Below are positions 285 through 42,600 of a stretch of DNA of 64,000 nt, one piece after another. The notes below the pieces were generated by a model. The model was not told the DNA's origin and searched no databases. It saw only the letters and a list, made by a program, of their open reading frames with translations. Made by a program: the position numbers and the translations under genes. Numbering within the stretch: the first letter of the stretch is position 1; the number at the start of each line of letters is the position of its first letter. This DNA comes from Vezdaea acicularis (lineage: Eukaryota): contig JAPEUI010000071.1 in assembly GCA_026025075.1 (NCBI GenBank), forward strand, positions 1 to 64,000, written 5' to 3'.

Positions 285-1811
285 ATGATACTACGATATC
301 CCCCCCGAAGGGTCACTTTTCTTTCACGATCAGATTCAATATGTTTTGGATGCCTGCTACGGCAAGCTCGGCCGCGATTACGACCTCAAAGACAGGCCCT
401 CTCAACCACAGCTCGAGCCCAGCAGACGTTAGCGGAAGCGCCCTCTCAGGACGGCCTCTTCAAGAAGAAATACTTTTCCGCCAACGGCGTATATGGCTTT
501 AGAGGGGACGTAGAAAGAAGCTCTGGGGAGACGTTGGCGAAGAAAGCGGATAGTTCAATCGTCACACAAGCCTCAAACCTATCGACCACTGCTACCACAA
601 TCGAAGACGTATCTCCCCCACGACCAATACCACCAGTCGAGGCATCGACTGGGCTACCCCCTCCTGCTCGTCCCCGAAGACGTAGATTAAACCCCGAAGA
701 TGATCTCTCGAACCCAGCCGTCCTTCCAGACGCTTCTTCCCGCCTGAGCGCGCTCTCGCAACAGGCTGCCCCGGGCACACTTAAGCGTACGCTCGCAGCC
801 TACCTCTCCCTCACCAAACCGCGACTCACCTTCCTCATGGTCCTCACGGCCACAGCCGCCTACTCCATCTACCCGACTCCTTCTCTCCTCCTGCCCACCG
901 TTACCGACGCTCCCAGCCTTAGCACTCTAACCCTCTTGTTCCTTACGGCCGGCACCGGCCTTGCCTCCGCAAGCGCCAATACCCTGAACATGCTCTTCGA
1001 ACCTACTCACGATGCAAAAATGTCTCGTACCCGCAATCGCCCTCTCGTCCGCGGCCTCCTTGGCAAGCGTGCCGCCGCCCTCTTTGCAGCCGCTACTGCA
1101 GCCCTAGGCGTCGGCGCACTATACTTTGGCACGAACCCCACCGTCGCCGGTCTAGGCGCGCTAAATATCGGGCTCTACGCTTTCATCTACACGCCCCTAA
1201 AACGGCTCTCCGTGATAAACACATGGGTGGGCGCTCTCGTCGGCGGGATCCCTCCTCTGATGGGCTGGGCAGCCGCAGCAGGCCAGTCCGCCAGCCACGG
1301 CGGGACATGGCGCGAGCTGCTGATAGATGGGAAGGAGAGCGCTGGCGGGTGGCTGCTTGCCGCGCTACTTTTCTCATGGCAATTCCCGCACTTCAACAGT
1401 CTAAGCTGGGGCATCAGAGAGGAGTATAAGAACGCCGGATACCGCATGCTCTGCTGGGTGAACCCGCGGATGAACGCGCGCGTCGCGCTCCGGTACAGCA
1501 TCCTCCTCTTTCCCATCTGTGGCGGGCTCTGGTGGGTCGGCGTCGTGGATCAGGGATTCCTCCTGACCAGCTCGGTGGCGAATGCATGGTTTGCGAGGGA
1601 GGCGTGGAGGTTCTATAGGAATCAGGGCGGTAGGGGAAGTGCAAGAGCGCTGTTCTGGGTCAGCGTTTGGCATTTACCGGTTTTGCTCGTGTTGGCCATG
1701 GTGCAGAAGAAAGGGCTTTGGGAGAGGGTGTGGAGGGCAGCTGTGGGTGGGGAGGTTGAGGAGGAAGAGGATGAGGAGGAGTTGGAGAGGGCGGTGGAGA
1801 CGGGAGTATAG
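285..1811 (+). CDS. COX10: Protoheme IX farnesyltransferase (heme O synthase), mitochondrial
   Basis: Single 508-aa ORF with UbiA-family motifs [38 protein letters not shown] and WQFPHF; Arg/Ser-rich N-terminal presequence. Confidence 0.95.
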
Positions 1812-2465
1812 GCCGGAGTTACTGTACGAGTAGAGTTCATAGAGGCAATTCATCGTCTTCAGTTGTAGATATTATAGCAAGAGCTACAAAGTAAAATCGT
1901 CTGGCCTAGCTATAGCTACAGTAGAGGGTTGTAAGTGTTGTACGTTCGCGAATTTGTGCCTCCCATTTTAATCATTCCCTAAGCATGGCGAACAACGAAT
2001 TCATGTGTAGGAAACCTAGCTCACAGATTACCTGGGAGGTCTTCGATATATCAATTCAATAAATGCCTCATCGAGTGGAGGCAGTTCTTAATTCTTGGGT
2101 GTTATACCATATGTTAGCGGTCTCGTAAATGTACAACACTTACGACCACCCACTGGATATATTTCAAGTGACAGCGCGCAAAGTAGACTAAATTTTGACC
2201 GCCAGCCCAGGGTTGGTTGCAAGCGCGCCCTTAAGAGGCCTGGGGGGTGGTATCTAACAAAGGATACCCTGTAAGCGGGAAGTGTTAGCATGAAAGAAAG
2301 ACTCGAGGCTACAGACAAAGAAAGGCAAAGAATGAAAGGCCACAAGCTGTTGACTTACAAAAAGACCTCCAGATTACATCAATGTAATTTGGACTTACAG
2401 AGAAACAAATCGCTTTGGTCTTGGGATTTGAGTTAGTACTGTGGGATCCCTATCATAGCATAATA

Positions 2466-3604
2466 GTCTCCAGACGTAATGTAATAGTCAGAATAGTACG
2501 GAGCTTCTCAGACGTTTTGTAGCTCTCCAGACGTAGTCAAATAATCAAGATCACATGAAACTCTCTATGCTTTATAGAGCTCTCCAGACGTAATGAAACA
2601 ATAAAAATAACTTAAGATTCCTCATGCGTTATCGAGTTTTCCCAGCGTAATCGAAATCTCCATACGTAACCAAATTCTCTAGACGTAATGCAACAATCAA
2701 AGTAACGTAAGACTCCCCATACGTAATAAAGCTTCCCAGACGTAATAAAATAATTAAAATCACATGGAACTCCCCATACGTTATAGAGTTCTCCTGGCGT
2801 AATATAACAGTCATAATCTCGTGGAACTCCTCGTACGTAATGAAGCTCTCCAAACGTAATAATATAAGTAAAATAGCATGAAACTCCCCATACGTTATGG
2901 AGCTTTTGAGACGTAATAAAATAATCAGGATAACACGAAACTCCTCAGACGTTGTTGAATTCTCCAAACGTAATGAAATAACCAAAATGACGTGAAAGTC
3001 CGCAGATGTTATAGATTTCTCCAAACGTAATGAAATGATCAAAATGACGTGAAACTCCTCATACTTTATGAAAATCTCCAGACGTAATAAAATAATTGAA
3101 ATGACGTGAAACTCCTCATTCGTTATGGAGTTCTCCCAACGTAATGAATTGTTTAACATCACATAAAACTACCTGTACGTAATAAACCTCTCTAGACGTA
3201 ATAAAGTAATAAAAATGATGCAAAACTCATCATACGTTATGAAATTCTCCAGACGTAATGTAATAGCAAAAGTAGTTTGAAACTCCTCATACGTAATAGA
3301 GCTCCCCAGGCGTAATGTAGCAGTCAAAGTAGTAAAATCTCCTCATACGTAATGGAGTTCTCCAGACGTAATGCAAGAGTAAGAGTAGCGTGGAAATCCT
3401 CATACGTAATGAAATTCTCCAAACGTAATCTAACAATCAAAGTAAAGTGAGACTCCTCAGACGTAACAGAGCTCTCCCGATGTAATATAGCAGTCAAAGT
3501 AGTAGAAAATTCCTCATACGTAATGAGAGTCTCTAGACGTAATGCAATGATTAAAGTGATATGAGACTCCCCATGCGTCGTGGAGCTCTCCAGACGTAAT
3601 AAAA
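2466..3604. repeat. Tandem array of 21 units of a 57-bp repeat made of three 19-bp monomers (A-B-C)
   Basis: CTCCAGACGTAAT-like core recurs at 2468, 2525, 2582, 2639, 2677, 2734 ... 3304, 3360 ... 3588. Period is 57 except one 38-bp and one 56-bp unit. Consensus A TTCTCCAGACGTAATGAAA, B TAATCAAAATGACGTGAAA, C CTCCTCATACGTAATGGAG. Confidence 0.95.
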
Positions 3605-3911
3605 CATACGCAGTATATACGGGCAAGGACGTTCGTGTAAGCCTCCAGTATCTATATGGAGACCACATAGCACGTACAGAACAGAATGGCTCTATTCTCC
3701 ATGCGAGAACAGCATAAAGAGAAAAATGATATCTAAATCCTTCCGCAAGAGGCATTTAGTTCAACTACTTGGTTTACAGTACTACAAGGAAAGATAAATG
3801 CATCCACTGCGAATGGATACAATTCAAGGCAAGTAAATGGAAAGAGGAACAATTTATTCTCATTGCAAAACTAATTCTTCCAGGCTCAATCTATCCTACA
3901 CAACCATGAGA

Positions 3912-4012
3912 GTCTCCAGATTACATGAGTACGATGCTCTATCGACCGCTAACAACACAGCATAACTGGCATTAGCGAGCGTCAGACCACCACACTCATG
4001 CAATCTGGAGAC
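3912..4012 (-). repeat. 19-bp inverted repeat (hairpin with 63-nt loop) overlapping the orphan gene stop codon
   Basis: GTCTCCAGATTACATGAGT (3912-3930) vs ACTCATGCAATCTGGAGAC (3994-4012): 18/19 complementary; the single mismatch is a G-U pair in minus-strand RNA. Confidence 0.85.
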
Positions 4013-5122
4013 CTCCATTACCGTTTGCCTGCTGGTTGAGCCCTAAAAGCGGACCAAGGTTAGCAGATGAAGGATATATATATGGGAGAGACCAGCTTAC
4101 ATGAAGCAGGAAATTGTGCCTTCTTGAGCGTGCCATCTGCGCGGCATTGCGCCACCATTTGTGGAATAGTCAACCACATACGCTTGCTGGGAGCAGTTCT
4201 GGTAGCCTTGCGAACGGTGAAAAATCCCTTTCGTTTCCAGGAATTCGCTTGGTTTCGTACGGCAGCTTTGATCTTGATATTCAGCTCTGCCTGGAGGTAG
4301 GCAGGCATCGTGGTAACACAAAGATCTTCGAGCAACTGCCGATAGTTTTCATTTGCAGATTCTTCCGTCGCATGAGGGCCACCTTGATCTACGTGGCTGA
4401 CCTGATCGTGTGTATAAATCCAGATTTTGATCATTTGCTTCTCTCGGCTAGGAAGCTTGAATTTACGATTACCTCTGGATGAGTTGAGAGCCGCCAATAG
4501 TTGCGCGTTGGTCATACCTGACCAAGTTTGGGGGCTACGCCAGGTTGGAGGGATGCCTTGGGTGCGGGCAACAATTCCTTTCAATTCCTCAAACGTTCCA
4601 ACATCAGCAATGACTGGGCTGTTTTTGGATCAGTGTTGATACACTGACACTTTCTAAGGAAATGCACTTACGCGGTGGCGAGGCTTGGTGGGCCATCAAA
4701 TTGGAGAAGCTCAAACGGAGTAGTTGCAGTTGGTGATGGGCTTGGAGATGCCATCATATCACCACAAGCCGCAAGTAGGATATCAGCCATCTGCTCGACG
4801 GTAGTTGACGATGAAGGCGTCGGAGTAATAGCCTTGTCACTATTCACAATCTTATTAGTAGCTCGATCAACACTAGATGGCGACATGAATGCCGGGCCAG
4901 GCTTTTTGTCCTTGACAGCAGAGGCTAGTGAGGAACGTTAGAAGATCTAAAAGATAACCCTAACATTGACAACGTACCCTTCTTCTTATTAGTGGCTGCT
5001 TTTGTTGCTAGAATTGGCACTGGAGCGCGTTTGGCACCGCTCCTAGTACGAGACATTCTTCTAGGCGGAGTTGCTAGAACTGGCACTGGAGGCCACTTGG
5101 TACCTCTTTTAGTGCGTGACAT
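3996..5122 (-). CDS. Orphan 4-exon gene, ~320-aa basic protein of unknown function
   Basis: Exons 5122-4978, 4924-4672, 4618-4101, 4042-3996. Donors GTACGT/GTAAGT/GTAAGC, branch sites CTAAC/CTGAT/CTAAC, acceptors TAG/CAG/TAG. All three junctions keep the frame and join ORF-track pieces 4925-5122, 4668-4886 and 4060-4584 into 963 nt. Confidence 0.8.
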
Positions 5123-5928
5123 ACTTCCAGGCGGGGTGGGGGCTTCTAGGAGATCTTAGGGTGACTAGTTCTCTTAGAACTATAGGCTTTGTTCTTAGAT
5201 CCTAAGAACAAACACAAAGGAGACACCTGAGTTGAGATCCTAGCTCAGGAGGTCGGTGGCTTTGTTAGGAGTAAGGAGCAAAGAAGAAGGGACAAATCTT
5301 TTGATGATCCAAGGAAAGGTGAACGTTGAGTGCGGGCAATCGACTCGACAATACGCGAAGAGCAGTCACAACACTTTCGCTTCGCGCTAAGGGGTTCATA
5401 ACAATCATGGCTGTGTTGAAGTGCGGTTTGATCCGGCTAAGTCAAACGGATACACACGGGAATCAAAAGCCCCACTCTTACCAGCAGAAAGCGGCAGGTT
5501 GACTGCCAAAAGCCCCCTCTCTGTCTTTGAGCCTCGAACTTGTACGACTCCTTTTTGCAGACACCATGCTAGCGCCTCAAAGGTAGACTGTGCAAGATGC
5601 TTGAGACTGAGAAGAACAGGCCTTGCATAAGTCCAGCATATTTGGTGGTGAGAATAGATCCCAGAGCCGCCACGTGTGGTCATGCTTGATATACACAGCT
5701 GCTGACCAGTCTCAAGTTCTTGTTTAGGAAAAGACATCCTTTAGGCTCCCGTAATATAGATGCCCGAAGTTGGTGCGACACATGCACCTAGGATTTATCT
5801 TGGTCTCACCAGTCATATTCTCGATCGATGTTCGGCACGCCATACCTTTCCAATGCTTGAAATTCTATTCATATAGCTCCTTAACGCTTCCTCTCAAAGT
5901 ACCCGCTTGACCCCATTATGGCCACACT

Positions 5929-6556
5929 TTGGTCCATAACCCATTCACCGATACCCAAATAGCTGTCGACCCATTTTTTTATCTCTTTATTCTCTGTGAC
6001 TTTCTCGGTCTGGACGCTGGGGCTATGGTCCCAGGAGATGGGAATCGTCAGCAAATCTCTTCTCGAATTCTCAGATGCTACAAAGCTTCAAGGAATATGG
6101 ATGCTTTGATAGAAGCGGCAGGTGAATTTACGTTAGACCGGTTGACCGTTTGACGCCTGCTAAGAATGCCGAAACTGGAATAAGTCAGCTTACAGAACCT
6201 CAACTCAAAGGGGAAGATTACGGACGTAGCACAGCATCAAATGCATAATGAGTCAATCTTCCGAGCTTTTTCAGAATCCAAACAGTCAGTATGCTGAGCA
6301 ACTACGTGGCTTAAGCCGGAGCGCATTTGTGAAGGCTGTGGCAACTCACCACCATTTTGATACGCGCAAAGGCCCAACGGGTCTTGCAGGAAGTGCTTCG
6401 ATTTTGAAATGGGCTCTACGAGGGGAAGTAGACAGCTGCTATGTCCCTCTAGTCAATGCCTTGATAGCCTTTGAGATGAATGTACTTGTCGACAAAGCGT
6501 TAGTTGACCCGTATGTCCAGGCGCTTAGCGCGCACGTGAGCGCCAGAGCTCCCTAG
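5929..6556 (+). pseudogene. Possible interrupted orphan gene (5' end unresolved)
   Basis: ORF 5929-6121 joins ORF 6248-6556 in frame via a putative 43-nt intron (6122-6164, GTGAAT..AAG), with one in-frame TAG at 6227-6229. No family recognised. Confidence 0.3.
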
Positions 6557-7046
6557 ACAAAGAGCCCCGCGCTTGCAAAGCCATATGAAGCCTAGCGTGA
6601 GATTCGATAACAGCCCGTGGTTCAACTGGTTCGGTAAGAAGCTCCCGCGGAAAGTCGCGCCCGAAATTCCTGTTGGGCAGTTTAAGGCTCTCGAAATGTG
6701 TGGAGGGGTTCGCTAGGTGTTGTGGTGAGCTGAACGTCATCCAAGACAACAGTGCCCAAATAATTGCTTCTTCACAACCTCCGGAGAAATTTTGAGGTCA
6801 CGCTCGAGGGCCTTTTTACTTCGTTTTTCAATTCCTGAGTCATATTAAGAGCTTCCGCAGTGCGAGCCTTTGAGTCGGTAAGTCTCAGGTCTTCTCTCTT
6901 GCCCCGCTCAAGATTGAAAGCTCTGTAGCTTGAGCAATATAATTTTCACATCTCGTTACCCCGCAATCCCGTCTCTGACTGCAAGTCCAGCATCGATAAA
7001 ATCCCGAGAGCCATTGAGCATCGTACTTCACTGTCGATTAGATATC

Positions 7047-9096
7047 ATGGCTTCTTCGCAAGACCAATTGTCCAGCCGGACCCGGCATGAATGGCTGGCA
7101 AACCTAAACACGGAATACCGGCCAGCAAAGAATTACAGGAGAACGTCCATCATTGGCACCATTGGTAAGTTTAAATATCTTACATAGAAACATCTGGCAG
7201 TTACGACCTCTGTAGGGACTAGGCTGACATTCCTCAAAGGTCCCAAGACAAATTCTGTGGAGAAGATCAACATGCTTCGCAAGGGTAGGCGAGCTACACT
7301 CTGCTGTCAAAAGCGCCTCTAATGGCTCTGATAGCTGGTCTCAACATTGTCCGAATGAACTTCTCGCATGGCTCATATGAGGTTTTTATCTCGCCCCAAC
7401 ATCGAGAGGGTGACTATACTAAATTAGCTTAGTATCATCAATCCGTTGTCGACAATGCGAAAGAGGCGGAGCGAACCCAGGAAGGTCGCCCGCTTGCTGT
7501 TGCCCTCGATACTGTGTGTGATTCGAACTCCTACCAGGTTATATACTTTCAGCTGACATTATGGCAACCTTAGAAAGGGCCAGAAATCCGTACTGGTAAT
7601 ACTGTCAACGATGATGATATTCCTATTGCTGCTGGTGCCGAGCTGAACATCACGACTGACGAGAAATACGCGACGGCTTGTGACGACAAGAATATGTAAG
7701 TCCAAAGGCCTTCTAGTTATACCACCATGCCTAGTCACACCTTCAGCTACTGACGAATGATCTCAACAAGGTACGTTGACTACAAGAACATTACCAAAGT
7801 TATCGAAAAGGGGCGAATAGTCTACGTCGATGATGGTGTTCTGTCATTTGAGGTCCTTGAGATCGTTGACGAAAAGACTCTACGTGTACGATGTTTGAAC
7901 AATGGCAAAATCTCCTCCAAGAAGGGTGTCAATCTCCCAAAGACAGATATCGATCTTCCAGCATTGTCAGAAAAGGACCAGAAAGATCTAAGGTTTGGTG
8001 TGAAGAATAAGGTCGACATGGTCTTCGCGTCCTTCATCCGACGAGGTAGTGACATCCGCCACATTCGACAGGTTCTGGGTGAAGATGGTAAACAGATTCA
8101 GATTATCGCGAAGATTGAGAATCAGCAAGGTGTAAACAACTTTGACGAAATTCTTAAGGAGACCGATGGCGTTATGGTTGCTCGTGGAGATCTTGGTATC
8201 GAAATCCCGCCAGCACAAGTGTTCATCGCGCAAAAGATGATGATCACCAAGTGCAACCTCGCCGGCAAGCCAGCAATCTGTGCGACGCAAATGTTGGAGT
8301 CGATGACCTACAATCCACGACCTACCCGAGCCGAAGTCAGTGATGTTGGGAATGCAGTGCTTGATGGAGCGGACTGCGTCATGCTGTCAGGCGAGACGGC
8401 AAAGGGCAACTATCCAAAAGAAGCTGTTACGATGATGCACGAGACTTGCCTGCTCGCCGAGGTCGCCATTCCATACGTGAGTCAGTTCGATGAGATGCGA
8501 AGCTTAGCTGCACGGCCAGTCGGTACAACGGAGAGTTGTGCTATGGCGGCCGTCAGTGCCAGTCTAGAACAGAATGCCGGCGCTATCTTGGTCTTGACCA
8601 TAAGGTTAGTAAATTCCTGATCAAGAGGTCGGAGCGCTGCTTATATTCCTCAGTGGGAGCACCGCTCGTCTGGTATCTAAATATCGTCCCGTCTGCCCTA
8701 TCCTCATGGTAACACGTAACCCGATTGCTTCTCGAGTAAGTCTGTCCCGATGTCACAGTTGCCGTCTGGAACTAGAACACTCATATTTCTTTAGTATTCC
8801 CATCTGTATCGTGGCGTCTACCCTTTCCACTTCCCCGAGGAGAAGCCAGATTTTACCAAAGCGGATTGGCAAGAAGACGTGGACGGCCGTATCAAGTGGG
8901 GTATTGCCCAAGCAATCAAGTTGGGTATCCTGAGCAAGGGCGACACCGTTGTCTGTGTTCAAGGATGGCGCGGAGGAGCAGGTCATACCAACACGTAGGC
9001 CACCTTTACGTCTCCTGAGTATTAGTATGCTAACATTTACGCTCTAGACTTCGTATCGTTCCTGCCGAGGATGATCTAGGGTTGAGGCGAAAGTAA
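7047..9096 (+). CDS. PYK1: Pyruvate kinase, 9 exons
   Basis: Motifs [66 protein letters not shown]. Introns 7165-7239, 7285-7334, 7382-7432, 7514-7573, 7696-7770, 8605-8653, 8736-8794, 8995-9047, all frame-preserving. Confidence 0.97.
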
Positions 9097-30421: not shown

Positions 30422-32568
30422 TCTGACGACTTGCGCTTTGGCAGGCGATACCCTAAGGAGGAGGTATTGATCAAAGAGGTCACGATCTTCAAAGAGTGAA
30501 GGTAAAGTGAGTGAATGGTCCTTGGTGAGAAGATGGAAGGCCAAGGGTTGGATGCGACGAGGGAGTTGGTGTCACTTTAAGACGACGAGGCCGGGCTCGT
30601 GTTGGACGAAATTGAGCATCAGCCGCAGTCACTCATGCCATGCCAACTCTGCCCGTCACAGCCCTCCTTCTTGGAAGCTTGACCCAGTCAGCGAACGCCA
30701 TGAAACCGCCGATCGCTTAACAGAGCCAATCGTAGCGCCCCGCGGTCACGGGATTCGCCATTAGCCCTTGTGGCGGCAATTGCCGGGCGTAAAGGCTGGC
30801 AGCCTTGGCAAAGGCGGAGTCGCAGCTGCAGGGGCCGACTCGCCAACCGAGCGCTGCCCTAAGGAGTTTGGAACCGACAACCAAGAGCCAAGAGCTTTCC
30901 AGCCCCTATCTCGCTTGCGCCATTCAATGAGCGAAGTGCGACATCATAAAGTCTTCTACCAGGAAGGCTTGGCTGTTGAAGCAAGCAAAAGGCACGTCTC
31001 GTCCCGTTGCGCAGTGCGCTGCTGTGGTTTTCCAATTCGCCCTGGGTGCTAGCAGGAGACAAGTCTTGGAAGCGCCCTTTATGACGGGGAGGGCCTGGAT
31101 CCAACGACAAGCATCTCACATGCACGGTCGACTGCCTCGATCAAGCTTAGCACCAAAGCCATCATCTCTCAAGAGCCAATGCTATCGTACCTGATCTGCG
31201 CGGGAACAAACATGCTTTGAGACAAATCTTAAAAATACTCAATCCAGCATGCATCACCATTCGATGCCGGCCTTCCAAGAAACCCAAAACCCCCGGCCTC
31301 CTTGGCAAAAAGGTTCCCGCCATTTCTCCCAAAAGGTTGTTCCTTTGCGATGCTGGAGTGATCCATGTCTAACTTTCCGACCGGAATATGCCATCATCGC
31401 ATCCTGGTCCTAGTTGTCCCAGAGAAAAGCTCTGTTTCACTTGGTCATGGGCCGCGGAGATTGAGCGTGGCCGTGCATTTAAGCTTGAAAGCCTGCCGAA
31501 CCTCGCTAAGTTAATTACGATCAATGCCAAGCCTTTTGATGATCCAAGATCTTGCTTTTTTGTTCGTGAGAGTTGGTTACTGGGTTTGAGCCAGGGGAAC
31601 CGCTGACCAAGGCTGGGAGCGTCGTTGGTGCGTAGGTCTGTAGATGTGATGTAATGCCCGGTCATGGAAGTGGTCGGTGAGGGAGTTGATGGGTGAGCTA
31701 TTGGCGTGTTCTAGGGGCTGATGGGTGGCTGGTCACGTCGTGTGTCCGTCACATGAGGTGTTCGCTGCGCTAGGGTTCGTGTCGTGTTCTCAAGGGGTCA
31801 GGGCTAAAGCAGTTCCGCCAAGAAGTGGCGTCCAATTTTTCGAAACTCTCGATCGTCCGCTATATAGCTGAGACCAGGTATTTTAATTGCAGAAAAATGT
31901 CTGGTACTACACCAAGTTGACTATAAGTCTTAAATATATAATCGCATCTGAAGTCGTGGTGCTGGAAGCGCAGAATAGTTCGGGTTCAAAGTCTTGGCGG
32001 AACGGCATTAGCACTGAGCCTTTGTACGCACGCTTTTCACGGTGTGCTTTTCACCCTGTAGGGTGAATCATACATTCAAGTCTTTGCTCGTGACCAAATC
32101 TGAGTACGAGGGACGATCTAGTTCATGCGTGACGATCGGATCGAGACGCCTTCTAGCCTAGCCCTTGGATATAGGTTAGAGAGAGGCGCGGGTCAACTAC
32201 GTCCTTCTACTTCACCAGCTATGCTAACAGAAAGATCATGTTTTGTCAAGATATCCGTCAGAGGATAATTTGGCTATGGTTGCTCCTACTTGTTCAAAAT
32301 ATAGAGGATGTATTAACTCTCATACCTACGCCTATATGGAGGGCGTTCGCGTAGGCATGCGGGGCACACTGCTGATTGGAGATCTGCCCTGCGAATGGCC
32401 TTTCAGCCTTGTCCCGCAAGGCTATGGATTGCTACGATAGCATCTATCGTGGCTCTTCGATTTCCCCTCAAAGGATTCTGGGACTCGATAGAAACAACTC
32501 ATCTTGCCAAGGGATGTCCCTTGGGTCTTTCCTTCCTATCGAACGATTCACGAGCTGGGAGACTATGA

Positions 32569-39653: not shown

Positions 39654-42600
39654 CTACAAATCCCAACCCAAAACATCAATCTTCTTCCTCTTCGGTCGCA
39701 GAAGCCCCGTCTGTTCGTCCACAGTGCCCATCTCGCCCTTAACGCTCTTCAGCCGAGAATACTGCTTCGCAAAGCGCTTGAACGGCGCGTCTTTATCCTG
39801 CCACCACTCCACCGCGTTCGCGGGTGAGGGCGGAGGAGCCATCTCGGTCTTGCGGCTTGGCGCGTCTGGAGTCTGGTCGAGCCAGGACTGTACGTTCTGC
39901 GCGGAGGGCGAGTCGGAGTGGCTTCGAGAGCGGGCGGAAGCGCGCATAGTCGATGAGATGGGCGTTGCGTCGGGACGAGTTGCAAAGGGCGTTTCAGATG
40001 GCGTGGGAGGTTGCGAGGTCTCGCTCACGAAGAGAGGGGTACCGTCCTTTTGCTTCTCGGTTGTGGTGGGGGGCGTAAGTTCTGATCCAGCTAAACTTGC
40101 CCAGTGCAGAATACGAGATCTCGGGGGGTGGAGGTCGTTTACCGATCCATCTAAACTTGCCCAGTACAGAGTGCGAGATCTCTTGGGGGGGACCTCGTTC
40201 ACCGTACCAGCGGAGATCGGAGCCCTCTCATCTTGCGTAGCAGTGTCAGCAAGACGTCTCTTTGAAGATGATCTGGGTTGCTCTGATGCTCTATTTCGAT
40301 CTTTTGTTGACAGCTCCTTCACACCTGAGCCATGAAGACTATTAGGCTGCGCCGCATTTCCGGCGTGCGATGTCGAGCGTAACACCTCTTTTGCGGTAGC
40401 AGCTGTGAGTCCGCTACTTTGGGACCGTTCCTGTCTAAGCTGAGGGGAGGAGGAACTCAGACTTCTTCCATAAGATTTGTCGGAGATGCTATCTTTTCTG
40501 CTGAGATGTGTATCCTCCTCCTTATGGTTGAGAGGCTTCGATGGCATGGATACACCGCGTTTGGATGCTCTTCCGAGATTATCTGACATAGCCTCAGCAG
40601 GTCGCTTTAAAGTAGTGGGTGGCAAAAGACGTGGGTTAGACGGCTTGGGTTTTTCCTGATATGATGGTGAAACTGATTTGAGACTTTTATCGCTTTTCAT
40701 CTTGGTGATCTCGACGGAGTAGTTCTGTGGGGCCAGGCCATGCTGGGGGGAAATGCTATGAGTGTTTTCTCGCGAGGCTACTCCACTATGGACCTGCTGT
40801 TTCGGCATGCCATCGTCTTTGTCAATCTTCGTGTCTTGACGTTTTCCATCTAGCTGACGGCCCCTAATGTTGGAAACAAACGCATCAGGAGCTGTGGAGG
40901 AAGTTGGAGGCGCCCCTTTCTCTCCTAGAACATGAGGAATTGTAACTTCAAGAGATAGTTCGTCTATGTCATCGTCTGACGTTACCTCTTTTGAGACTTC
41001 ATACGATGCTCTCTTGGGAGATCTCTTAATTGGAGATAGAATTTTGATCGGCTTGGTCTTGAATTGTGAATATACCTCTGAGACTGGTGTCTCTGGCAAG
41101 TCTTGCTCGTTAGATGACGAGGTTTGGGTAGAAATATCTAAAGTAAGTTTCTCTGAACACTTTAGGGCTGTGTGCTCATGAGAAACTTGTGAGTTCCTAT
41201 CATGATTGTATTGGTCTTGTGGAAGTGCTTCCCCCTGCTCAGTTTCACGATAGCTATGGCCCTTCTCTAGAATCAGGGTATTGTTCGCGGGAGCCTCTAT
41301 ATTGGCCGTCGGAGATGCTCTATCAACTCGGGGGATAGGAGATACCGCCGACATGTCCCGCTCAATCGCGGTCGGTGATCTGCGGGCCATCATCATTGCG
41401 ATTTTCTGAATTCGATGTTCTGGCGTTCCCGGAACATTAGCAAGGTCTGAGCCACACTCGACCACTACTGGCTTGACCGTGTCGGCGTCTGGAGAAAAAC
41501 CTACTCCAGATTCATTTCGAACACGAGTAGGCACGGTCTCATCATCCGAGTCTGGAGGAGGTTGGTGCCCCCAGCGCTCCGGACTTGGTGATTCTTCCCA
41601 AGATATCTCACTGCCTTCCTGTTCTAAATTCGCAGCTTCCGACTCAGAAGTAACAATACTTCGCGCTGTTCCGACATCCTCGTCCAGAAAAGGCATTGAG
41701 TTCTGCTCTTCATCTGAATTGGGATTTTCTCCGGTTGATCTTCTAATTGAATGTACGTCATAAATATTTGGGAGAAGATCAGCCTTGGCATTAAGATGAT
41801 CGAAAAGATCTTGAGGAATGTTCGCCGAGGGTCCTCGGGTGCCTAATTCCGCAGGAATCCAGCAGCTTTTCTTTCGGAGCAGTTTCTCCTGATCTTTTGG
41901 TATTCTAACGTCTCGGAGACTGATTTTCGTCATGTTTTTCCATGGATCATCCTCATCATCGTACCAGAGCCAAGGGTCTCTTTGAACCCCTGAGACACCG
42001 ACGGTTGATAAATCAGTGACAGACTTCTCATTGCTAGCCCTCAAACCGACCTCCTCTTCTTGCCTATTTCGTTGGCTGGTTTTTGGCTGAGTTGAAGAGT
42101 CTACCTTGTGGGACGCGGCACCTGATCCTTTTGCGAAGGAGGTTATAGTCTCCTTGGATAAGTGAGCCATATTATTGCTCATAGGGCTAGATTTAATATC
42201 AGGAGCGTTATGAGCATGCGAAACATGCTTGTAACTTTCCAACCCCTCTCGTTCATCTCTGCGAGCTTGCATAGTGCCTAAATCTGTGGATGGACGCGGA
42301 CGGTCGGTTTCCGTCCCAGCCAATTTCGTCAAATCAGGCCCGATTGGCATGGTCTGAGCTTGTCGTTCAGTACTCGTTCTTGCTTGTTCTATGGATTTAT
42401 GCCTCTCATGTTGAGCACCTTGATGACTCTGAAGAAGCTTAAGCAACTGTGCGTTCGATGGAACTGCTCTTGCGGGGGTAAACTCTCGTGGTTTGTTCAT
42501 ATGATGCTTTGATTCTAAAGGATCTTTTCGCTGTCGTTCGGAGCAATTGGAGGACGATTGTCGATTGTACCTAGACAATTGCTTCGAGAGCGCAGCATTC

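Follow-up and report, generated by a model that had tools for sequence, protein, structure and literature searches.

INTRODUCTION

The described systems that come closest to the locus analyzed here are the intergenic minisatellites of fungi and other eukaryotes, foldback/MITE-type transposons, hairpin-type RNA precursors, and taxonomically restricted fungal genes. Minisatellites consist of units in the 10- to 100-bp class that are arranged head to tail at a single locus. Foldback/MITE-type elements are non-autonomous DNA transposons with inverted ends, in which tandem repeats are often present internally or subterminally. In 3' regions, inverted duplications can give rise to long hairpin RNAs and miRNA-like precursors. 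By titles and the opening lines of abstracts, the literature on Vezdaea covered here is concerned with taxonomy, checklists, or phylogeny, and nothing on this locus was found in that material.

Here, we analyze a locus of Vezdaea acicularis at which a tandem array, inverted repeats, and an orphan gene adjoin one another within a 64-kb stretch of DNA, hereafter called the window. An earlier note had proposed that the gene and the array may be one unit. The sequences of the two do appear to be related, but we find no support for a functional link, and a functional gene-array module is unsupported. Instead, the locus is probably a single-locus minisatellite with inverted, duplicated edge units that sits beside an orphan gene, two separate things that share sequence ancestry.

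RESULTS

The orphan gene and the array had been placed between COX10 and pyruvate kinase, and both flanking genes were confirmed in the window, a UbiA/COX10-type open reading frame at 285-1811 and a pyruvate kinase barrel at 7754-8620, each on the plus strand. The orphan gene occupies 3996-5122 of the minus strand as four exons (5122/5056-4978, 4924-4672, 4618-4101, and 4042-3996), which are separated by GT..AG introns of 53, 53, and 58 nt and end in a TGA stop codon at 3996-3998. The spliced product is identical to a database protein, annotated as a hypothetical protein of a V. acicularis MAG, at 298/298 residues. Translation from the annotated start, ATG 5056, gives 298 amino acids, and translation from the upstream ATG 5122 gives the 320 amino acids that the earlier note had read from four minus-strand exons. 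A 342-nt metagenome contig that covers 4108-4449 at 93% identity changes 22 codons, 15 of them synonymously, with no gap and no stop. In the same contig, 16 of 23 differences fell at third codon positions (binomial P = 4e-4), and exon 3 is under purifying selection. We conclude that the orphan gene is a genuine protein-coding gene, specific to the lineage of this Vezdaea-type fungus, because it splices exactly to a database protein, has canonical introns, and varies mostly by synonymous codon changes.

The 5' end of the gene has a more complex structure. The basic, duplicated N terminus recognized earlier is encoded by a 66-bp tandem duplication at 5004-5134 on the minus strand (TRF period 66, 2.0 copies, 80% matches; 79% identity in a separate repeat search), which gives two 22-amino-acid basic repeats, MSRTKRGTKWPPVPVLATPPRR and MSRTRSGAKRAPVPILATKAAT. 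The annotated start of the protein corresponds to the second of these repeats. Moreover, contig depth marks a multicopy segment, assigned to no strand, at approximately 4906-5267 (boundaries approximate) that runs from the beginning of exon 2 through intron 1 and exon 1 and takes in about 145 bp of upstream sequence. Depth was summed over metagenome contigs in four moss-metagenome runs, which makes it a rough guide to copy number among the contigs listed, and stretches without contig cover were not counted as evidence; across five DNA-type runs from two studies, at most 0.31 of the words sampled from the stretch were present. Among the contigs listed for run X1, the segment had a summed depth of 97 to 134, compared with 5 to 8 in adjacent bins. 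Variants within it were shared by 7 to 10 contigs, loose ends fell at 5263/5267, one contig per run jumped over 4986-5146, and no second copy was found within the 64-kb window. Because exon 1 lies inside this multicopy segment, we place less confidence in its coding status than in that of exon 3.

The protein has no detectable relative in the collections searched. A phmmer search with the full protein against 1,835,955,588 representative proteins returned only the protein itself, as did a word-index search with exon 3 (18 candidates) and a search of the exon-1 peptide against longer proteins (42 candidates). Among the JGI metagenome contigs, 191 pattern matches were found and none was confirmed by tblastn. 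The orphan status proposed earlier thus extends over 1.84 billion representative proteins and the JGI metagenome contigs. Like taxonomically restricted genes of other fungi, the gene has no detectable homolog and yet has canonical introns and is under purifying selection. It differs from them in that its C terminus appears to have been recruited from repeat-derived sequence and in that its first exon lies in a multicopy segment.

Beyond the 3' end of the gene lies a minisatellite of about 20 units of 57 bp at 2467-3604 on the plus strand, delimited by TRF, by the register of the head motifs, and by aligned units. TRF reported a period of 57 at 2681-3604, with 16.2 copies and 68% matches. A 21-unit array some 390 bp past the stop codon had been described, and we recovered 21 A-type heads at 57-nt spacing, from 2468 to 3588, with the end of the array 392 bp from the stop codon; one additional 38-nt partial unit lies near 2639-2676. 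Each 57-bp unit is composed of 19-nt subunits with ACGT cores (CTCCAGACGTAAT ... CTCCTCATACGTAAT), B-heads sit 19 nt upstream of A-heads, and higher-order periods of 114 and 171 are present. The array has a G+C content of 37%, the mean pairwise identity of 19 aligned units is 0.69, and differences among units are divided 155:64 between transitions and transversions. Judged by its units, the array is old and diverged and has decayed chiefly by transitions. The RIP ratios of the array (TpA/ApT, 1.04; [CpA+TpG]/[ApC+GpT], 0.80), for which the window as a whole gives 0.75 and 1.25, carry no conclusion on that decay because the repeated motif itself sets them.

The array is the only one in the 64 kb to score above 200 as a tandem array, and a search of the window with the monomer gave no match outside the array below E = 1. 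Thus, from the window and from contig depth, it occupies a single locus. It resembles fungal and other eukaryotic intergenic minisatellites in its head-to-tail units of the 10- to 100-bp class, in its confinement to one locus, in its 114- and 171-nt higher order, and in a mean unit identity of 69%. One contig, from one of the four runs, joins 2950 to 3008 and omits exactly 57 nt, which may reflect either variation in unit number or assembly collapse. What sets the array apart from other minisatellites is that both of its edges bear inverted copies of the unit junction, one of which is now the end of a coding sequence. A spacer at 3605-3899, assigned to no strand and with 39.7% G+C, separates the array from the hairpin described below; it has no homology to the array by monomer and junction profiles up to E = 100, and a tRNA scan that included it found none. 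We also note that the array lies in a 3'-to-3' gap, with the COX10-type gene on one side and the orphan gene on the other.

Palindromes mark both edges. On the gene side, a 125-nt palindrome at 3900-4024 would fold, in RNA of the minus strand (the sense strand of the gene), into a long hairpin whose stem has about 54 pairs. A 19-bp hairpin containing the stop codon had been reported here, and while the stop codon does fall within an arm, the structure is far larger than that. Its 5' arm consists of the last nine codons of the gene together with the TGA at 3996-3998, and a repeat search placed the arms at 3912-3952 and 3972-4012 (41 nt, 78% complementary). When folded as minus-strand RNA, 3900-4030 gave a 54-pair stem at -67.3 kcal/mol (z = -9.1; 0 of 200 shuffles as low), compared with -46.4 kcal/mol (z = -7.6) for the same region as plus-strand RNA. 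At the opposite edge of the array, 2367-2394 holds a short palindrome, assigned to no strand, that reads CTCCAGATTACAT CA ATGTAATTTGGAC and folds weakly (-6 kcal/mol as DNA; z = -2.45; 5 of 200 shuffles as low).

The earlier note had observed that the hairpin arm, the far-side 13-mer, and the array share a CTCCAGA head, and shuffle tests place this sharing above chance. The 13-mer CTCCAGATTACAT is repeated exactly at 2367 and at 3914 in the hairpin arm. With up to two mismatches, it has 5 matches in the window (1.5 expected; 5 reached in 1 of 100 shuffles), 4 of which lie at 2367-4010. Likewise, TCTCCAGA has 14 matches in the window (3.44 expected; 14 reached in 0 of 100 shuffles), and 9 of them fall in 2467-4011. 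Read as its reverse complement, 4004-4021 agrees with the array junction GTAATGGAGTTCTCCAGA at 17 of 18 positions, and an alignment places the junction core (..ATGGAG.TCTCCAGA..) in both hairpin arms. With a junction-centered profile, the site at 4004-4021 was the best non-array match in the whole window (E = 0.052). The kinship of hairpin and array rests in part on their adjacency, because that E value is only 0.052 and because, in a k-mer test, one further site elsewhere in the window matched the junction at 17/18 or better. Coincidence had been allowed for as the source of the linkage, but the junction match, the profile match, the arm alignment, and the motif excess point instead to related sequence. 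We conclude from these comparisons that the hairpin, the far-side 13-mer, and the array are related by common descent of DNA. Because the hairpin arms bear the junction core, array-type sequence would make up the end of the gene, from its last codons through the stop codon into the beginning of the 3' region.

DISCUSSION

The inverted edges might be the ends of a transposon. One could read 2367-4024, approximately, as the relic of a foldback/MITE-type element with ends CTCCAGATTACAT... and ...ATGCAATCTGGAG and a tandem interior, which inserted next to the gene, decayed, and supplied the C terminus of the gene. Indeed, terminal inverted repeats are found at 2367-2385 and 3992-4010 (19 nt, 84% complementary), all four local copies of the 13-mer sit at the two ends, and a convergent gap of about 2.2 kb separates the stop codon of the COX10-type open reading frame (1811) from that of the orphan gene (3996). 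The locus thus resembles such elements in having inverted ends around a repeat-rich interior, and short inverted-repeat elements of MITE-like kind occur nearby in the genome, such as the multicopy element at 1912-2162 with its 40-nt inverted ends. Depth, however, argues for a single copy. Among the contigs listed for run X1, depth was 2 to 10 across the array and throughout 2185-3965, as against 3 to 9 in single-copy flanks, and it reached 78 to 150 at 1911-2184 and 4925-5335. The same held in 4/4 runs, in which the array region was as deep as the single-copy flanks and the two adjacent segments were 10 to 30 times deeper. Moreover, the window contained no second copy, the array junction pattern had 0 matches in the metagenome contigs, and no target-site duplication was read beside 2367/4010 or 3900/4024. 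Finally, all units of the array share one orientation, and a foldback element would be expected to carry them inverted at its two ends. We conclude that a non-autonomous mobile element, which had been among the earlier suggestions, is unlikely, given the single-copy-like depth in four runs, the lack of a second copy in the window, and the lack of a target-site duplication.

The gene and the array might also be tied at the level of RNA. G·U pairs make up 13 of the 54 pairs in the minus-strand fold, and in the ungapped arms of 3900-4024, 13 G·U pairs form on the minus strand and 1 on the plus strand. Put differently, of the 14 transition mismatches between the arms, 13 become G·U pairs when read on the sense strand of the gene, an asymmetry with a binomial estimate of about 0.002 (two-sided). 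Because nearly all arm differences are sense-strand G·U, the stem has probably been maintained at the RNA level, or at the very least tolerated there. A RIP-type cause of the bias is not favored because 4/13 wobble T's are in TpA context. The asymmetry could come from strand-biased mutation instead of selection, given that the plus strand is skewed (A>T and C>G) all along 2400-3900. If it does reflect selection, a regulatory RNA structure would have been born directly from the edge of a minisatellite. On the gene sense strand, the locus has the stable predicted stem-loop of a small-RNA precursor, and it is like inverted-duplication precursors in its long, near-perfect predicted stem, its small loop, and its sense-strand G·U pairs. 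It differs from them in that the stem takes in the stop codon and the last nine codons.

We think it improbable that selection acts on the 125-nt palindrome as an RNA element, one that derives from array units, embeds the stop codon of the orphan gene, and is kept paired on the sense strand, so as to tie the gene to the array. Were it so, the array junctions might be matched by small RNAs from the hairpin, or read-through into the array might be under hairpin control, and the locus would be a young, lineage-specific, self-regulating gene-repeat unit. In a related scheme, transcription would run through the hairpin and the array, and the hairpin, and perhaps stems within units, would be processed into small RNAs acting upon either the gene or the array. 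Besides the 54-pair stem and its G·U bias, two features are consistent with this scheme. Each unit can form a 6-bp stem, AACTCC/GGAGTT, that is paired in 97 of 114 cells when minus-strand G·U is allowed, and the plus strand has A>T and C>G skew throughout 2400-3900. Transcription-associated mutation can leave strand skew of this kind, and the direction fits minus-sense transcription. The skew may, however, be mere composition of the founding unit. Moreover, the unit stem has a minus-strand excess of G·U (23 versus 7), but slid controls gave similar counts, so the stem may likewise reflect base composition. Finally, 1800-5600 had 0 Rfam matches on either strand at E up to 1. The processing of a cotranscribed repeat RNA into units, as once proposed, is thus unsupported, and we regard the scheme as doubtful.

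A third possibility is that the protein would bind DNA at an array of sites of its own, iteron-like or driver/target-like, namely the ACGT-core units downstream of its gene. The protein is basic and probably nuclear, with a pI of 10.1 overall, 11.8 in the N-terminal 40 amino acids, and 10.1 in the C-terminal half. Its layout is a very basic N terminus, an S/T/P-rich linker, and a basic C-terminal half that low-confidence models predict to be helical. ACGT cores are typical of bZIP-type sites, and 2 to 3 of them are present per 57 bp. No DNA-binding or initiator domain of the kind expected of an iteron-like system was recognized, however, by Pfam, by the PDB, or by structural models. Pfam gave only subthreshold hits to DUF7785 (E = 0.03 and 0.052) and DUF7881 (E = 0.24), with scores far under their 27-bit cutoffs, and nothing on DUF7785 was found in the literature. 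Sequence searches of the PDB with the full protein and with exon 1 gave 0 matches at E up to 10. AlphaFold models from single sequences had pLDDT values of 38.5 and 41.7, without a confident fold, and the best score in an Atlas search, 0.76, was uninformative. A likeness of the N terminus to the histone H3 tail was likewise set aside, as the exon-1 search of the PDB gave no support. Moreover, the protein has no homologs in the searches above, and the shared motif is explained without binding because the hairpin and the array share ancestry. With neither a domain nor a confident fold found, a DNA-binding protein with its own array is very unlikely.

We consider it highly implausible that the array represents a coding repeat, decayed or still live, with a 19-amino-acid unit (consensus SSITYEEFHVILIISLRLE) on the minus strand. 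In favor of that reading, 57 nt equals 19 codons, one fixed minus-strand frame is unusually open, with 11 stops and a longest run of 179 amino acids against 27 to 48 stops in the plus frames, and the 19 aligned units have 3 in-frame stops. Those 3, however, compare with 5.7 ± 2.2 when substitutions are shuffled by position (P = 0.15), and synonymous changes number 77 versus 71 ± 6 (P = 0.20). The three codon positions carry 55/83/81 substitutions, which gives the third no excess, and the frame shifts twice along the array. A coding tandem repeat, for example of a leucine-rich-repeat-like kind, was rejected on the same counts of stops and synonymous changes, which lie near the shuffled expectation and give no sign of coding constraint.

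We favor a minisatellite whose edge units were duplicated in inverted orientation and that adjoins an orphan gene, and its history may have run as follows. A 19-nt unit with an ACGT core would have been multiplied to a 57-nt unit, which slippage or unequal exchange would then have amplified to about 20 copies. The array would have decayed since, mostly by transitions, and the number of its units may still vary. Sequence of the array junction would have been duplicated in inverted orientation at both edges to give the palindromes at 2367-2394 and 3900-4024. The last exon would then have come to read into the right-hand palindrome, from which the gene would have gained its last nine codons and stop codon, along with roughly 100 nt at the beginning of the 3' region. 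The mRNA would fold there into a stem of about 54 pairs, and such a stem most likely affects the fate of the mRNA 3' end, be it stability, termination, or RNase III-type cutting. On this history, the locus would be a small, clean case in which a taxonomically restricted gene took both the close of its coding sequence and a long 3' hairpin from repeat DNA. The case bears on how orphan genes grow, and it is not surprising; the shared motif would reflect common descent of DNA, with no demonstrated gene-array system. A metagenome contig that is 91% alike spans 2131-2511, and the left junction of the array is therefore present in a diverged lineage too.

Results and Discussion

The hairpin at the end of the orphan gene and the neighboring 57-bp array are probably explained by an ordinary old minisatellite, confined to one locus and bordered by units duplicated in inverted orientation, next to a genuine orphan gene whose last exon recruited one of those units. 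Edge units of the minisatellite would have been duplicated in inverted orientation, the last exon of the gene would have recruited one of them, and the recruited unit would have become the long hairpin in the 3' region. The earlier note had proposed that gene, hairpin, and array form one functional module. Common ancestry of the gene end, the hairpin, and the array holds, but we found no evidence for any of the functional systems proposed, and a literature search, in sources available in part, returned nothing on this locus. The 3' hairpin may be maintained as RNA, and the locus gains interest only if the hairpin is a selected RNA element.

The hairpin is real and carries the stop codon in its 5' arm, but it is far larger than the 19 bp originally ascribed to it. 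It is a 125-nt palindrome (3900-4024, minus strand as RNA), and no other short-loop inverted repeat in the window ranks above it. Folding of 3900-4030 as minus-strand RNA gave -67.3 kcal/mol and 54 pairs (z = -9.1; equaled by 0 of 200 shuffles), and the 5' arm contains the last nine codons of the orphan gene together with the stop (3996-3998). An Rfam scan gave no family match and a tRNA scan no match.

The array unit junction is present in both hairpin arms. The reverse complement of 4004-4021 agrees with GTAATGGAGTTCTCCAGA at 17 of 18 positions, and the left arm agrees with the junction at 3511 at 14 of 15 positions over ATGAGAGTCTC.AGA, in an alignment read by eye. By a junction-centered profile, 4021-4004 was the top non-array match in the window, at an E value of only 0.052. 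In a k-mer test, one more site elsewhere in the window reached 17/18 or better, and thus adjacency bears part of the argument for hairpin-array kinship. The 13-mer CTCCAGATTACAT occurs five times in the window with at most two mismatches, and four of the copies build two palindromes, 2367/2382 and 3914/3998, on either side of the array. TCTCCAGA is found 14 times where 3.44 copies would be expected, and nine of these lie within 2467-4011. The motif common to the hairpin, far-side, and array sequences is real and due to their common descent.

The one unusual feature of the locus, the strand bias of the hairpin mismatches, bears on whether the hairpin is selected as RNA. When the arms were paired without gaps (3900-4024), the transition-type mismatches made 13 G·U pairs on the minus (sense) strand and 1 on the plus strand, and folding was more stable for the sense strand than for the antisense strand by approximately 21 kcal/mol. 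A 13:1 split is unlikely under strand-symmetric mutation (binomial estimate, ~0.002 two-sided, a rough figure). One explanation is that pairing of the sense RNA is selected. Another is strand-biased mutation, in line with an excess of A over T and of C over G on the plus strand across the whole of 2400-3900 and with a G·U-minus excess in a small unit-internal stem that was matched by slid controls. A RIP-type cause is disfavored because only 4 of the 13 wobble T's lie in a TpA context.

In the array (2467-3604), 21 A-type heads (CTCCAGACGTAAT and variants) run in register from 2468 to 3588, with one additional 38-nt partial unit. TRF called a 57-bp period over 2681-3604 (16.2 copies, 68% matches), along with 114 (72%) and 171 (70%) as higher-order periods and with local 19-nt periods. 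Since B-type heads (CCTCATACGTAAT and variants) also lie 19 nt ahead of the A-type heads, the 57-mer is composed of related 19-nt subunits, every one of them having an ACGT core. Pairwise identity averaged 69% over 19 aligned units, and array units differed from the consensus by 155 transitions and 64 transversions. No other large tandem array was found within the 64 kb, unit profiles found no further array copy in the window, and JGI metagenome contigs scanned with the array junction pattern gave no match.

As 57 nt equals 19 codons, a single minus-strand frame stays open over much of 2467-3604. Translated on that strand, most of the interval gives a repeated 19-aa peptide (consensus SSITYEEFHVILIISLRLE) interrupted by few stops. 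When substitutions were shuffled over positions as a null, the frame had 3 stops versus 5.7 ± 2.2 and 77 synonymous changes versus 71 ± 6, and substitutions fell 55/83/81 by codon position. These counts indicate no coding constraint, and a coding repeat is rejected.

The array might instead belong to a mobile element, as the earlier note suggested. Copy number was judged from contigs of four moss-metagenome runs of one study, aligned to 1500-5600. In one run, X1, summed depth over the array and hairpin was 2 to 10, like that of the single-copy flanks (3 to 9), which contradicts a mobile element. By contrast, depth reached 78 to 150 over 1911-2184 (3 to 9 alongside), where a 251-bp MITE-like element (1912-2162) just after the COX10-type gene has 40-nt inverted ends of 75% complementarity (core, GGTTGTAAGTGTTGTAC / GTACAACACTTACGACC). 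Contigs of this element end loosely at 1916 and 2155, and one opposite-strand joint links 2034 and 2123; it has no second copy within the window. Depth was likewise 97 to 134 over 4925-5335, in a second multi-copy segment (about 4906-5267) that covers exon 1 and intron 1 of the orphan gene and ~145 bp upstream. Here each run gave 7 to 10 contigs with common variants, one contig per run is without 4986-5146, and a 25-nt palindrome lies at 5188-5212. We conclude from these depths that the genome has multi-copy short elements and that the array-hairpin unit is not among them. No target-site duplication was seen by the candidate ends in the sequence read by eye. One contig joins 2950 to 3008, omitting exactly one unit, and a 91%-identical contig over 2131-2511 places the left array junction in a diverged lineage too. 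Elsewhere, 31791-32024 resembles another MITE-type element, with an inverted-repeat pair whose 33-nt arms are 168 nt apart and show 85% complementarity.

The orphan gene (3996-5122, minus strand) is real. With three canonical GT..AG introns (53, 53, and 58 nt), its spliced product is identical at 298/298 residues to P0001, a hypothetical protein from a V. acicularis metagenome-assembled genome. Starting from the upstream ATG at 5122 yields the 320 aa previously predicted, with one extra copy of a 22-aa basic repeat encoded by a 66-bp tandem duplication, in agreement with the duplicated basic N terminus also described. A 342-nt moss-metagenome contig over 4108-4449 had 23 differences and zero gaps; 16 of the 23 affected the third position of a codon (binomial P = 4e-4), 15 of 22 changed codons were synonymous, and no stop arose. 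Thus, exon 3 is under purifying selection.

Orphan status stood up to protein searches. P0001 itself was the sole match both in a word search (18 candidates) and by phmmer against 1,835,955,588 representatives, and 191 pattern matches in JGI metagenome contigs included 0 confirmed relatives. Pfam gave nothing above threshold (DUF7785, E = 0.03 and 0.052, ~15 bits against a 27-bit cutoff), and a PDB search found no relative. The exon-1 peptide had no relative among longer proteins, and because no other protein carries it, exon 1 may be part of a repeated element or have originated from one. The protein has an overall pI of 10.1, and a basic N terminus (pI 11.8 over the first 40 aa) is followed by an acidic S/T/P-rich linker and a basic C-terminal half, predicted to be helical by low-confidence single-sequence AlphaFold models (pLDDT 38.5 and 41.7). 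The Atlas score of 0.76 was uninformative. Its charge would fit a nuclear or nucleic-acid-binding role. A likeness of the N terminus to a histone H3 tail was not supported, as exon 1 gave 0 hits to PDB sequences at E values up to 10.

The window is fungal DNA, and the flanking genes are as first named, a UbiA/COX10-type open reading frame (285-1811, plus strand) and a pyruvate kinase barrel (7754-8620, plus strand). The ~1.9 kb that separates the orphan gene from the pyruvate kinase gene (5123-7046) forms a big gap in an otherwise compact locus and contains three stop-to-stop open reading frames of 90 to 111 aa, with no Pfam match at E values up to 0.1. A run of 13 G's lies close to the window start (14-26), and a 60-bp tandem duplication (2.1 copies, 80% matches) at 40084-40211 has a G9 run inside.
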